A stretch of 64,000 nucleotides of DNA. It comes from Escherichia coli. Its GTDB lineage: Bacteria > Pseudomonadota > Gammaproteobacteria > Enterobacterales > Enterobacteriaceae. This document shows, one piece after another, positions 1 to 13,522 of the stretch. The stretch lies in assembly GCF_013315695.1 (NCBI RefSeq), contig NZ_CP054353.1, one strand, 5' to 3'. The notes beneath the pieces are model-generated. The model did not search any database and was not told the DNA's origin. It saw only the letters and a list, made by a program, of their open reading frames with translations. Position 1 is the first letter of the stretch. Each line of letters starts with the position of its first letter. The translations under genes and the position numbers were made by a program.

Positions 1-187
1 AGATAATTGTTCTGGCTCCACCACTCTTTCCTTGTTGGAGGGGTAAACGTTTTTTGATGACACCGCTACCTAAATCAGCCTCCCATATGCCCTGCATCAC
101 TTCTTCAGCGGCAGCCATGAGAACTTTATCGTGAATACCAAGTTTTTTCGTGCTTTGGCTGAATCGTCTTGCCTTATACACACCCAT
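1..187 (-). CDS. Partial CDS (N-terminal ~62 codons, continues past left window edge): RelE/ParE-superfamily (HigB-2/Gp49-like) toxin candidate
   Basis: Manual minus-strand translation from ATG at 185-187: MGVYKARRFSQSTKKLGIHDKVLMAAAEEVMQGIWEADLGSGVIKKRLPLQQGKSGGARTII... The G-x-G...GKSGG-R-I motif is typical of this toxin family. Absent from ORF track because it runs off the edge. Confidence 0.4.
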   Translation of the reverse strand, partial: MGVYKARRFSQSTKKLGIHDKVLMAAAEEVMQGIWEADLGSGVIKKRLPLQQGKSGGARTII

Positions 188-412
188 ACATCCATCCTTG
201 TGGTAATGTTTACTATAGTAACCATTACGCTTATTTCAAGTAATTGCGATCAAAACTTTAATTTGGTGTGAAAAAGTGAGAGTTGCCTCGAGTACGATAC
301 ATTTTTCTCGATTTATGCGTCAGGGGATTTTGTGCGTAAGGGTAGGACATCGGGAAGGGTAGCAGAGGCAGATCGAAGAACAATATCCTTGTTAGATCTG
401 CCTTTAAATTAA

Positions 413-1738
413 TTAAACCCGGCTACCCCACAAATCGTACTCATCGGCGTGCTCGACTTTCACACGCAGGATATCACCCGGCTTAACGTTGGTTTCACCA
501 TTGAGATAAACCGCGCCGTCGATTTCCGGTGCATCTGCCATGCTGCGACCAATCGCACCTTCTTCGTCCACTTCGTCGATAATCACCAGAATTTCACGGC
601 CCACTTTCTCTTGCAGGCGCTCGGCGGAAATCTGCTGCTGCAACTGCATGAAACGGTTCCAGCGTTCTTCTTTCACTTCTTCCGGAACCTGGTCAGGCAG
701 GGCATTGGCGTCTGCACCTTCAACCGGGCTGTATTTAAAGCAGCCAACGCGATCCAGACGTGCTTCTTTCAGGAAGTCGAGTAGCATCTGGAAATCTTCT
801 TCCGTCTCGCCAGGGAAGCCGACAATAAAGGTTGAGCGTAGGGTCAGTTCCGGGCAGATTTCGCGCCACTGTTTGATGCGCGCCAGTTGGCGATCTACAG
901 AACCCGGACGCTTCATCAGTTTGAGAATGCGCGGGCTGGCGTGCTGCAACGGAATGTCCAGATACGGCAGGATTTTGCCTTCTGCCATCAGTGGGATGAC
1001 GTCGTCCACATGCGGATAAGGGTAAACGTAGTGCAGACGTGTCCAGATCCCCAGTTTCGATAACTGTTCGCACAGGCTGACCATGCTGGTTTTTACGGGC
1101 TCGCCGTTGTGGAAGCCAGTACGATGTTTAACATCGACGCCATACGCGGAAGTATCCTGCGAGATCACCAGAATCTCTTTAACGCCCGCATCAACCAGAC
1201 GTTTCGCTTCACTTAACACTTCGCCAATCGGACGGCTCACCAGGTCGCCGCGCATAGACGGAATAATGCAGAAGGTGCAGCGGTGATTACAGCCTTCAGA
1301 AATTTTCAGATAGGCATAATGACGCGGTGTCAGTTTCACACCTTGTTCTGGCACCAGGCTCAGGAATGGGTTGTGTTTCGGTTTTGGCACGTAGTGATGA
1401 ACGTGCTCCAGAACCTGCTCATAGCTATGAGGCCCGGTGATTTCCAGCACTTTCGGGTGGACTTCGCGGATCTGATCTTCTTTTGCCCCCAGACAACCGG
1501 TCACAATTACCTTGCCGTTTTCATTCAACGCTTCACCAATGGCTTCCAGTGATTCTTGTACCGCGCTGTCAATAAAGCCGCAGGTGTTGACGATCACCAT
1601 GTCCGCATCGTCATAGCTCGGTACCACGTCATAACCTTCAGTGCGTAGTTCGGTGAGAATACGCTCTGAATCGACAAGGTTTTTCGGACAGCCAAGGGAA
1701 ACAAAGCCGATTTTCGGCTGGGGAGTTACTTTGCTCAT
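413..1738 (-). CDS. rimO: Ribosomal protein S12 methylthiotransferase RimO (radical SAM MTTase)
   Basis: 441-aa ORF with N-terminal MTTase domain, radical-SAM CNHRCTFC motif and C-terminal TRAM-like region; full-length match to recalled E. coli RimO. Confidence 0.93.
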
Positions 1739-9834: not shown

Positions 9835-11042
9835 CAACTATTCTCCATCGCCGTCTGCGTTTTGGTATCGGGTTTGGCGACGGCTTTCGCGACAATAGCC
9901 GCGAGAATAACCAGCGCCAGTACAACCAGCATTGCACTACGTAATCCATAATGTTCGCCGAGATAGCCCAGCAGCGGCGGCCCGACGAGGAAAGCCAGAT
10001 AACCGGTCGTTGCTACCACACTGACGCGGGTTGGTGCATCGGGGCCGGTATCGCTGGCGGCAGAAATGGTCAGCGGGAAGCCCAGCGAGGCACCTAGTCC
10101 CCAAAGTACAACAGACACTCCTGCGACCCAGGCGCTATCGACAAAAATAATCAGCCCAATACCCAACGCCCCCATTAGTGCACTGGCCCGAACCACGGCA
10201 ACGCGACTGTAACGGTCGATGAACCAACCGCCGGTGAGGCGTCCAACGGTCATCCCCAGGGTAAAACCGGCATAAATCAGCGAGCCGGAAGTAGGACTAA
10301 AACCGTGACCGTCAACCATTAATAAGGGTAACCAGTCGTTGGCAGAACCTTCGGCAAAGGCCATCGCCAGCACCACAACACCAATCAACAGCAACTGGAT
10401 ATCGCGATAAAAAGGTACGCCTTTTTCGCCATGCTGGGTGCCATCGGCAGCATTTTTGCCCGTACCGTCAGGGATTGCCTGAATGGCGATATAAATAGGT
10501 GCGATGCCTACCAGCGCCGCCAATAAAATATGCACCGTTGCCGGAACGCCAAAGGCCGTCAGTGCCATCCCGACACCAGCGCCTGCCAGCGTGCCCAGGC
10601 TATAAAAACCGTGCATCATCGGCAAAACCGTTTTATTCATTTCTCGCTCAACGGCGGCACCTTCAACGTTTATCGCCACTTCCGCAGAACCAAAACTTGC
10701 CCCAAAGACGCCGAGACCAACCGCGAAGAGCAGGGGCGATGTCAGCCAGAGTGCCAGACTTAGTATCATCATCCCGATCAATGCGCAGGACATCGTGACC
10801 AGGATGACATTACGCGTCCCAAAGCGTTTCACTAACCACGCCGAGCAGAGAATACCGCTCATTGAACCGATCGACAGACCAAAGAGAACACCGCCCATTT
10901 CAGCGATCGAGACAGAAAGAATGTCGCGGATAGCAGGTGTACGGGTTGCCCAGGACGCCATTAACAGGCCCGGCAAAAAGAAGAACATAAACAGCGCCCA
11001 GGTTCGGCGTTTCAATGCATTACGTGAAGAATTTAGGGTCAT
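9834..11042 (-). CDS. ybjJ: MFS transporter YbjJ
   Basis: 402-aa hydrophobic multi-TMS ORF; synteny. Confidence 0.88.
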
Positions 11043-11125
11043 AGATCACGTCAAAATAAGAAGAGGGAAGACAACATTAGCAAGGTTGTGTACATTTGTA
11101 CACAATTGCAGAGAGAGGAAATGAC

Positions 11126-11662
11126 ATGCGTCGCGCTAACGATCCGCAACGGCGAGAAAAAATTATCCAGGCCACGCTGGAGGCGGTGAAACTTTATGGA
11201 ATACATGCTGTTACGCACCGCAAAATTGCTACCCTTGCCGGGGTACCGTTGGGGTCGATGACCTACTATTTTTCAGGAATTGATGAGTTGTTGCTGGAGG
11301 CGTTCAGCAGTTTTACTGAGATCATGTCCCGGCAATATCAGGCATTTTTTAGCGATGTTAGTGATGCTCAAGGCGCATGCCAGGCTATCACCGATATGAT
11401 CTACAGCTCACAGGTGGCAACGCCGGATAATATGGAGCTGATGTACCAGCTCTACGCGCTGGCTAGTCGAAAACCGCTATTAAAAACGGTAATGCAAAAC
11501 TGGATGCAACGCAGTCAGCAAACGCTCGAACAATGGTTTGAACCCGGAACCGCCCGCGCGCTTGATGCGTTTATTGAGGGGATGACGCTGCATTTTGTCA
11601 CCGACCGTAAGCCGCTATCGCGCGAGGAGATTTTGAGGATGGTTGAGAGGGTTGCAGGGTAG
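11126..11662 (+). CDS. rcdA: TetR-family transcriptional regulator RcdA (YbjK)
   Basis: 178-aa product from internal ATG ([21 protein letters not shown]...); TetR-type N-terminal HTH. Confidence 0.88.
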
Positions 11663-11800: not shown

Positions 11801-11836
11801 GTGCAAAAAAATTTCATTTTCAGGGCAACTTCAGTT

Positions 11837-13522
11837 TTATCCTAATCCTGGCCATACCATGACGATGATTGTCCCTGCCAGCGTCAGCAGGACGTTGGCG
11901 ATTGCGTAAGTGCCCGCATAGCCCAGCGCCGGGATATTACTGCGAGCTGTATCACTGATGATCTCCATTGCCGGCGCGCAGGTGCGTGCGCCCATCATTG
12001 CGCCGAACAACAGTGCGCGGTTCATTCGCAATACATAAGCGCCGAACAAGAAGCAGATAACCACTGGCACCAGACTGACAATCAATCCGGCAATCAACAT
12101 TTGACCGCCAATCGCGCCCAGGCCGTTATTAATACCGCTACCGGCGCTCAGACCAACGCCTGCCATAAACACCATCAAGCCGAACTCTTTCACCATGCTT
12201 AATGCACCTTGCGGAATGTAACCGAAGGTCGGGTGGTTAGCACGCATAAAGCCCAGCATAATTCCGGCGAATAACAACCCGGCAGCGTTCCCCATGCCGA
12301 AACTGAATGTGCTGAACTGGAAGGTGATCATCCCGATCATCAGCCCAATAACAAAGAAGGCGCAGAATGCCAGCAAGTCAGTGACCTGGCTGTGAATCGA
12401 GATAAAGCCGATGCGATCGGCGATGGTTTTTACGCGACGGGCATCGCCGCTGACTTGTAAAACGTCACCTTTGTTAAGCACGACGTTGTCATCAATCGGC
12501 ATCTCAATCTGGCTACGAATGACGCGGTTAAGGAAGCAACCGTGATCGGTCAACTTCAGTTGTGCGAGACGTTTGCCTACAGCGTTATGGTTTTTAACGA
12601 CCACTTCTTCAGTGACGATACGCATGTCGAGAAGGTCACGATCGAAAACTTCTTTGCCATTACGGAAACTGGGATCGAGTCGGGCGTGGGCGTCGGGATA
12701 GCCTACCAACGCTATTTCATCGCCCATTTGTAGTACGGCATCACCGTCTGGATTTGCCAGAATCCCGTTACGCCGAATACGTTCAATGTAACAGCCAGTT
12801 TGTCGATAAATACCCAGTTCACGCAGATTTTTGCCGTCGGTCCAGGCTACCAGCTCCGGGCCGACGCGGTAGGCGCGGATCACCGGCAAATAAACCTTAC
12901 GGTTGGCATCTGTGTCCAGGCCACGTTCGCGGGCGATTTGCTGGGCGCTGGTCTGTAAGTCCTGATGCTGCAATTTCGGCAAGTAACGCGCACCAACAAT
13001 CAAACTCACCAGACCGATTAAATAGGTTAAGGCATATCCGAGGCTCAGATTATCCAGCGCCAGTGAGAGCTGCCTGCTTTCCATACCGGAATGACGCAGT
13101 GTATCGCCAGCACCGACCAAAACCGGTGTTGACGTCATAGAGCCTGCTAACATACCGGCCGTCAGGCCAATATCCCAGCCAAACAGCTTACCTAACCCTA
13201 AGGCGATGACCAGCGCACTGCCAACCATCACCAGTGCTAACATTAGGTAATTTTTCCCATCGCGAAAAAAAATGGAAAAAAAGTTCGGTCCGGCTTCGAC
13301 CCCGACGCAGAAAATAAACAGCATAAAGCCAAGATTAAGCGCGTCGGTGTTAATGCTGAAATGTTGTTGGCCTAATAACAGCGATACGACTAAAACGCCA
13401 ATGGAATTACCCAGTTGGATCGAACCAAGTCGTAATTTCCCGAGACATAGCCCAAGCGCGAGGACCACAAATAATAACAGAATGTAATTCCCATTTAACA
13501 ATTCGGCGACGTTTATATTCAC
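11837..13522 (-). CDS. ybjL: Putative transporter YbjL (AAE family, two TrkA-C domains)
   Basis: 561-aa ORF with hydrophobic N- and C-terminal halves flanking a soluble central region; synteny. Confidence 0.9.

Follow-up and report, generated by a model that had tools for sequence, protein, structure and literature searches.

The left edge of the window (the whole stretch of Escherichia coli DNA that was analyzed, 64,000 nucleotides) interrupts a type II toxin-antitoxin operon that is chromosomal and belongs to the HigBA2 family; its toxin gene precedes its antitoxin gene. It is very likely, by analogy with characterized relatives, that this is a functional module of that family, in which a ribosome-dependent mRNA endonuclease is neutralized and autorepressed by a helix-turn-helix (HTH) antitoxin. 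The pair itself is ordinary and already known: it is annotated in over 1,000 RefSeq genomes, and the mechanism of the family has been worked out in Vibrio cholerae and Coxiella. The original prediction was of a RelE- or HigB-2-like toxin beside rimO, with an antitoxin expected just past the edge. It needs correcting on two points only: dgcI is intact, and the label "Gp49-like" is not supported.

On the minus strand, an open reading frame starts with an ATG at position 187 and runs without a stop for 62 codons to position 1, as predicted; the remaining two minus-strand frames across 187-1 have many stops. Its translation is MGVYKARRFSQSTKKLGIHDKVLMAAAEEVMQGIWEADLGSGVIKKRLPLQQGKSGGARTII, and the RelE/ParE-type motif that had been quoted for this frame is present. 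The 62-codon fragment matches the Pfam family PF06296 ("RelE") with E = 1.7e-18 (67.4 bits; the cutoff is 27), a sequence match far beyond chance. Positions 1-1200 of the window match several complete chromosomes of E. coli with 100% identity, among them that of MS 21-1 (locus L001; window position is L001 position minus 12000). Leftward extension through MS 21-1 gave the full 128-codon toxin gene, an HTH gene just downstream of it (with an 11-nt overlap), where the antitoxin had been expected, and an intact dgcI (Table 1).

These data refute the alternative that the minus-strand frame arose by chance and that dgcI ends here on the plus strand. Besides the Pfam match, the stop codon of dgcI is 588 bp to the left of window position 1 (L001 11412), and the plus-strand frames that enter the window are closed within 15 codons, in agreement with the claim that no long plus-strand frame enters. 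The 14-codon plus-strand tail that had been noted does have sense codons at 2-43, but its stop is a TAA at 44-46 instead of ending at 45, and the tail (2-46) is antisense of the toxin gene. Nor was dgcI replaced: it encodes 442 amino acids with 98.6% identity to DgcI of K-12, and the module lies between dgcI and rimO. These two genes are convergent, and the module is wedged between them; rimO is co-directional with the toxin operon and upstream of it, with a spacer of 225 bp before the toxin gene. The genes after rimO in the window are bssR, yliI, and gstB. In the assembly of strain HS, yliI (aldose sugar dehydrogenase; L003 5038-6153) has an internal stop, and the annotation calls it a pseudogene.

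Table 1. Features at the left edge of the window and in the identical locus of E. coli MS 21-1 (L001).
Feature	Window position	L001 position	Strand	Identity, basis, or remarks
dgcI, complete		10084-11412		RefSeq annotation; left of the window
Antitoxin gene, 109 aa		11811-11482		WP_001280945.1; RefSeq "helix-turn-helix domain-containing protein"
Toxin gene, complete, 128 aa		12187-11801		WP_000539521.1; RefSeq "type II toxin-antitoxin system RelE/ParE family toxin"
Toxin gene, remainder left of window		11801-12000
Toxin gene, 5' part (62/128 codons)	1-187		-	WP_000539521.1; HigB-2/PF06296 family
In-window part of ~994-bp segment	1-406			Comparison of L001 with K-12 (L002)
Shine-Dalgarno-like AAGGA	195-199		-	7 nt upstream of toxin ATG; minus strand CACAAGGATGGATGT-ATG
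26-bp palindrome, halves GTAATGTTTACTA/TAGTAACCATTAC	203-228			Predicted operator of the HTH antitoxin
Sigma-70 promoter-like site	212-239		-	-35 TTGAAA (239-234), 16-nt spacer, -10 TATAGT (217-212)
Hairpin just past the rimO stop codon	366-403			Inverted repeat; 9-bp stem GGCAGAUCU/AGAUCUGCC
rimO, flanking core gene	413-1738		-	Open reading frame list and annotation

The full toxin matches PF06296 over the entire profile (positions 1-120 of 120; E = 6.9e-33; 113.8 bits, with a cutoff of 27). Among the toxin families in Pfam, this was its only match: PF05973, PF05016, and PF09907 gave none at E ≤ 1. The fragment also lacks a match to PF05973 at E ≤ 1, and so the Gp49-like label is unsupported for both. 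HigB-2 from V. cholerae is assigned to PF06296 as well, in a paper that also points out how confused the naming is (Gerdes, mBio 2025, PMC11980606). The likeness of the toxin to V. cholerae HigB2 (VcHigB2) appears remote at the sequence level: a single-sequence phmmer search against the sequences in PDB found nothing at E ≤ 10, while a profile of 30 homologues found HigB-2 chains only (E = 3e-4). No model in NCBIfam matched the toxin.

An AlphaFold2 model of the toxin (pLDDT 84.9, pTM 0.80) has two C-terminal helices. When this model was compared to PDB with Foldseek, the top six matches were HigB2 chains (including 8a0x_C and 5ja8_E), with probabilities of 0.92-1.00 and TM-scores, normalized by target, of 0.49-0.57; across the HigB2 fold alignments overall, identity was 13-16% and TM-scores were 0.45-0.57. 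The next matches were further ribosome-dependent nucleases with the RelE fold (Cami1, YafQ, HP0894, HigB1, RelE, and YoeB), with ParE weaker. The predicted fold is of the RelE type (BECR) and is closest to HigB2. Together with the full-length Pfam match, HigB-2 being the sole PDB family found by profile and the best match by fold bears out the proposed placement in the RelE/ParE superfamily and the HigB-2 family.

One fold serves both mRNA endonucleases and ParE-like poisons of DNA gyrase, and ParE structures (6xrw, 6x0a, 5cw7) are among the weaker fold matches, so we considered whether the toxin might be a gyrase poison instead. This is exceedingly improbable. The ParE fold matches are weak (E ≥ 0.08), PF05016 is not matched at E ≤ 1, and HigB2 accounts for all of the best matches, by sequence and by fold. 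Furthermore, the basic active-site residues of the RelE type are conserved, and the closest characterized relative, ToxP from Coxiella, inhibits translation in a cell-free system. An mRNA endonuclease is the activity that we propose for the toxin.

In the profile alignment, residues K45, R47, R59, W76, and K78 of the toxin correspond to Lys49, Arg51, Arg64, Tyr82, and Lys84 of VcHigB2, respectively; the first three are encoded inside the window. Four of these five active-site residues are the same in the two proteins, and the fifth is an aromatic replacement (Tyr82 to Trp). Across the 30 homologues, K45, R47, R59, and K78 are invariant. W76 is at least 90% conserved, with tyrosine instead in ToxP and in one other homologue (P0083). 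In addition, the glycine-rich stretch QQGKSGGA of the toxin is the counterpart of the disordered beta2-beta3 loop of HigB2. Replacing Arg51, Arg64, Tyr82, or Lys84 of HigB2 with alanine reduces activity by 170- to 3,000-fold (PMC5416850).

Does the tryptophan imply that the toxin is catalytically dead or attenuated, and that the pair is kept only as a transcription factor and its co-repressor? The Y82A mutation reduces the activity of VcHigB2 by 1,200-fold (PMC5416850), and truncated alleles of the toxin exist in E. coli. However, the tryptophan is found across the clade and is not a sporadic lesion; it is aromatic like tyrosine; and no variation occurs at the other four active-site positions. 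The ratio of nonsynonymous to synonymous substitutions (dN/dS) is 0.05-0.08 for the toxin and equally low for the antitoxin, and ToxP, which is 36% identical, is toxic. Overall, loss of catalysis seems quite improbable, and we favor an active toxin.

The truncated toxins that are annotated in some E. coli are P0027 (104 amino acids, in 23 contigs), P0038, P0039, P0048, P0052, and P0066 (73 amino acids). The toxin is not always kept intact, then, and the gene may have been inactivated repeatedly. A different sort of allele, in BS-01 (L085 2503-3371, NZ_CP172816.1), seems to have the toxin without the antitoxin. It contains numerous homopolymer runs and frameshifts and is just 83-94% identical over the aligned stretches, and it is probably an assembly error rather than biology.

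The antitoxin has an HTH_3 (Xre-type) domain at residues 53-94 (Pfam, E = 1.9e-9), with a segment of about 46 residues ahead of it. It is similar to VcHigA2 (PDB 5JAA_A; phmmer E = 5.7e-4, over residues 47-106) and to AntitoxP from Coxiella (BLASTP E = 2e-12), and by these sequence comparisons it is homologous to HigA2. In 77 of 80 related loci, the gene immediately after the toxin gene encodes a homologous antitoxin. We also considered the MqsA family of antitoxins (TIGR03830), but only the C-terminal HTH aligned, and the score was 47.1 bits against a cutoff of 61.8. The zinc-binding CxxCG...CxxCG domain of MqsA is absent: there is no cysteine among the 109 residues. Because the antitoxin is below the cutoff and cysteine-free, it is not MqsA.

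Upstream of the toxin gene is a promoter-like site that matches the sigma-70 consensus at 10 of 12 positions, and its -10 element lies inside a palindrome whose 13-nt arms are 92% complementary, with no spacer between them. The palindrome occurs once in the 64-kb window, where 0 occurrences are expected. In an alignment of the DNA upstream of the orthologous loci in seven organisms, the palindrome was the sole conserved block, and the flanking DNA was not conserved. The exact pattern of the core (GTAnnnnTTACyATAGTAAnnAnTAC) is found in E. coli, UBA5654, Kluyvera, Siccibacter, Morganella, and a metagenome-assembled genome (MAG) of Paenochrobactrum, at a constant distance from the ATG of the toxin, and there is a near-match in Proteus columbae. 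We interpret this conservation as the phylogenetic footprint of a predicted operator. This layout parallels that of the single operator of VcHigA2, which starts after the -35 and extends across the -10 (PMC11006873).

Read-through from rimO into the operon is also possible. The hairpin just past the rimO stop codon, folded as minus-strand RNA, has a predicted energy of -16.2 kcal/mol (z = -2.5) and is not followed by a U-tract; it may attenuate such read-through. The hairpin differs between alleles of the site. Here, it is GGCAGATCT...AGATCTGCC, without a U-tract, while in K-12 (L002 4665-4710) it is CAGGCCGG...CCGGCCTG and is common to the convergent dgcI. Because each allele has a different hairpin after rimO, the termination of rimO may differ between the two. 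On the other side of the module, there is a perfect 12-bp hairpin 3' of the antitoxin gene. We also noticed an imperfect tandem direct repeat of 17 nt between the toxin promoter and rimO (window 312-345; TTTATGCGTCAGGGGAT / TTTGTGCGTAAGGGTAG), which is not conserved in other genera. The roughly 1.07 kb that comprises the segment and its junctions has no Rfam match at E ≤ 1.

Two characterized systems are informative about this pair. The first is HigB-2/HigA-2 of V. cholerae (VCA0468/VCA0469; PDB 5JA8, 5JAA, and 8A0X), which sits in a superintegron, unlike the E. coli pair at its core-genome intergenic site. Both toxins belong to PF06296, and both operons have the toxin first and an antitoxin with an N-terminal segment that neutralizes the toxin (predicted, in E. 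coli) followed by a C-terminal HTH. Both have a single palindromic operator that spans the -10 (predicted, in E. coli). The E. coli toxin retains the equivalents of K49, R51, R64, and K84 but has tryptophan in place of Tyr82. At 128 amino acids, it is 18 longer than VcHigB2 (110 amino acids), and its model has an extra C-terminal helix. The operator sequences differ as well: GTAATGnTTAC-TATA-GTAAnCATTAC in E. coli versus TGTACGC-N5-GCGTACA in VcHigBA2.

The second system, ToxP/AntitoxP from plasmid QpH1 of Coxiella burnetii (CBUA0028/CBUA0027), is the closest experimentally characterized relative that we found. The gene order is alike, and both proteins align over nearly their full lengths (36% identity and E = 5e-24 for the toxins; 33% identity and E = 2e-12 for the antitoxins). 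As annotated, ToxP has 30 extra residues at the N terminus, and it retains the tyrosine (GYAKN), whereas the E. coli clade has tryptophan (GWSKS). ToxP/AntitoxP is plasmid-borne and has a role in plasmid maintenance, while the E. coli pair is chromosomal. For ToxP/AntitoxP, experiments have demonstrated toxicity, rescue by the antitoxin, inhibition of translation in a cell-free system, binding to the toxin, and binding to the promoter (PMC10098735).

Two toxin-antitoxin systems of K-12 can also be compared. RelE/RelB and HigB/HigA (YgjN/YgjM) have in common with the rimO-side pair the fold of the RelE/ParE (BECR) superfamily and, presumably, ribosome-dependent cleavage of mRNA, and K-12 HigBA is also toxin-first (PMC11980606). 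However, K-12 RelE belongs to PF05016 and K-12 HigB to PF09907, and the rimO-side toxin matches neither; RelB is an antitoxin of the ribbon-helix-helix type, and its gene precedes that of its toxin. The higB-1/ybaQ locus described by Rousset et al. is separate from the dgcI-rimO pair. When we searched the literature by protein accession, by the locus tags from strain Sakai, and by the rimO/dgcI context, we found no dedicated experimental study of the E. coli pair.

Relative to K-12, the module lies in a segment of about 994 bp (L001 11413-12406) that takes the place of about 40 bp, and the distance between dgcI and rimO is 1000 bp here instead of 46 bp. Similarity to K-12 is lost at the third base in the stop codon of dgcI and picks up again at window position 407 (AATTAATTAAACCC). 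Thus, the claim that a module was inserted beside rimO holds in the sense of about 1 kb extra relative to K-12; as an event, gain and loss both fit. We found no target-site duplication or terminal inverted repeats at the ends of the segment, and no mobility gene near the module in the annotation of MS 21-1, so an origin as a transposon or an integron cassette is unsupported. Base composition was uninformative: the GC content of the segment is 0.39-0.44, and that of pdeI-dgcI is equally low.

Among 5,426 complete E. coli genomes, 1,138 (~21%) carry the segment and 4,283 have the K-12-type junction, or empty site. In other words, the site is essentially a two-allele presence/absence polymorphism. 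The segment is at least 95% identical in 1,136 of the 1,138 carriers, and 98.6-100% identical among the full-length matches listed. The carriers include O157:H7 Sakai (ECs_5400, "addiction module toxin RelE," and ECs_5399), O55:H7, SMS-3-5, 042, and the commensal strain HS, and the RefSeq name "RelE/ParE family toxin" is applied in over 1,100 genomes. In a published survey, toxins with Pfam's RelE domain were absent from the sampled sequence types of phylogroups A, B1, and C (PMC10790755). The carriers of the module fit this survey, with HS as the exception.

The module appears to be strictly chromosomal in E. coli. In PLSDB, the identical toxin was found only on three "plasmid" records: CP088669.1 (730 kb), NZ_CP134663.1 (4.9 Mb), and NZ_CP141089.1 (4.9 Mb). 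Because these are very large or chromosome-sized, they are probably mislabeled chromosomal sequence.

Several comparisons bear on the age of the segment. The carriers differ from each other by 0.3-1.3% in the segment, 1.2-2.7% in dgcI, and 0.5-1.0% in rimO. Between MS 21-1 and Sakai, synonymous divergence is 0.067 for the toxin, 0.043 for the antitoxin, and 0.037 for rimO. The segment thus diverges on the same scale as its flanks, and by these measures it is a long-standing resident that diverged along with them and not a recent arrival. HS looks like a mosaic (L003 677-4331): its dgcI and its segment are closest to those of Sakai (1.2% and 0.3% differences), while its rimO is closest to that of K-12 (0.23%). 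This pattern suggests that homologous recombination in the core genes on either side has carried the segment between lineages, here into phylogroup A.

To place the module in a wider context, we scanned one genome per species for relatives. This identified 80 related loci, mostly from Enterobacterales, Legionellales, and other Gammaproteobacteria. None of the representatives of other Escherichia species (again one genome each) has the module. Relatives are common on plasmids, as in Piscirickettsia, Sinorhizobium, Coxiella, Providencia, and Moellerella. One 1,198-bp contig from a "Collinsella sp." MAG (JAIJJM010000872.1; L005) encodes a toxin and an antitoxin that are 100% identical to the E. 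coli proteins, along with the 3' end of dgcI (98.6% identical at the protein level). Contamination of the bin with E. coli DNA is almost certainly the explanation.

The closest copy outside of E. coli is in the MAG "Enterobacteriaceae bacterium UBA5654" (DIJC01000022.1), with 74% identity for the toxin and 78% for the antitoxin. There, the gene order is bssR, rimO, a 316-amino-acid open reading frame, toxin, antitoxin, and gsiD (L006 1333-4706), and pdeI and dgcI are absent. Comparison with this orthologue gave dN/dS ratios of 0.079 (toxin) and 0.066 (antitoxin); with ratios of about 0.07, both genes are under purifying selection. The synonymous divergence (dS) is saturated, and just this one of the 79 loci outside of E. 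coli has rimO within 4 kb, so two histories fit. The module may have been ancestral at the site and lost in K-12-like lineages, or it may have been gained. Other observations that bear on this are the absence of the module from the representatives of other Escherichia species, the lack of a target-site duplication, that the whole spacer differs, that the segment diverged like its flanks, and that the UBA5654 orthologue is downstream of rimO.

As to the neighboring genes, the GC content of pdeI-dgcI (L001 7728-11412) is 0.40-0.45, while that of rimO (L001 12413-13738) is 0.51-0.55. This low GC content and the absence of pdeI and dgcI from UBA5654 hint that these two genes, too, were added later, between gsiD and rimO.

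RimO methylthiolates ribosomal protein S12 beside the decoding center. An operon whose toxin would act in the ribosomal A site lies directly downstream of rimO and is co-directional with it, and the UBA5654 orthologue is likewise downstream. On that basis, we considered whether rimO read-through, or the modification state of S12, might be functionally coupled to the expression or activity of the HigB2-type toxin. We view this coupling as highly improbable. If it were true, then the empty site of K-12 would be the derived state, left by deletion of a long-resident module.

We propose the following mechanism for the pair. The sigma-70 promoter at window 239-212 would transcribe both the 128-residue toxin and the 109-residue antitoxin, and translation of the antitoxin would be coupled to that of the toxin through the 11-nt overlap. 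The RelE-fold toxin would enter the ribosomal A site and cleave mRNA under translation, using K45, R47, R59, W76, and K78. The N-terminal ~45 residues of the antitoxin would bind and neutralize the toxin, and a dimer of its C-terminal Xre-type HTH would bind the single 26-bp palindrome over the -10 so that the operon represses itself. If the antitoxin is labile, its degradation would release free toxin, which would arrest translation. For the E. coli pair, we infer toxicity, mRNA cleavage, neutralization, and operator binding from the characterized relatives in V. cholerae and Coxiella; what the analysis itself shows is at the sequence level, namely the two genes and their family, the predicted fold, the conservation of residues, gene pairing, and palindrome, the purifying selection, and how the pair is distributed in E. 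coli.

Candidate roles for the module in E. coli are selfish persistence of the segment, a stress response, or defense against phage. In particular, the pair might be mainly an abortive-infection system, in which toxin is released when a phage shuts down gene expression in its host or triggers loss of the antitoxin. Toxins of the RelE/ParE superfamily have been discussed as defense toxins (PMC11980606), and the module is accessory and patchy, with a presence in 21% of E. coli genomes. Also, a homologue of the toxin with 37% identity is carried by Escherichia phage PhiR12_3 from E. coli ECOR13 (PV340552.1 4340-4657; annotated as a hypothetical protein). But PADLOC gave no match for the toxin, and the neighboring genes (gsi, pdeI, dgcI, rimO, and bssR) are housekeeping genes rather than a defense island. 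We consider a mainly antiphage role to be rather unlikely. It concerns the biological role of the pair and not its chemistry, and is therefore compatible with the proposed mechanism.

A common accessory toxin-antitoxin pair of this kind matters little beyond correct annotation. Still, the segment offers a simple marker, present or absent, between two core genes, K-12 naturally lacks the module and can serve as a host for testing the pair, and the tryptophan that takes the place of the catalytic tyrosine of HigB2 in the E. coli clade is an easily testable difference.
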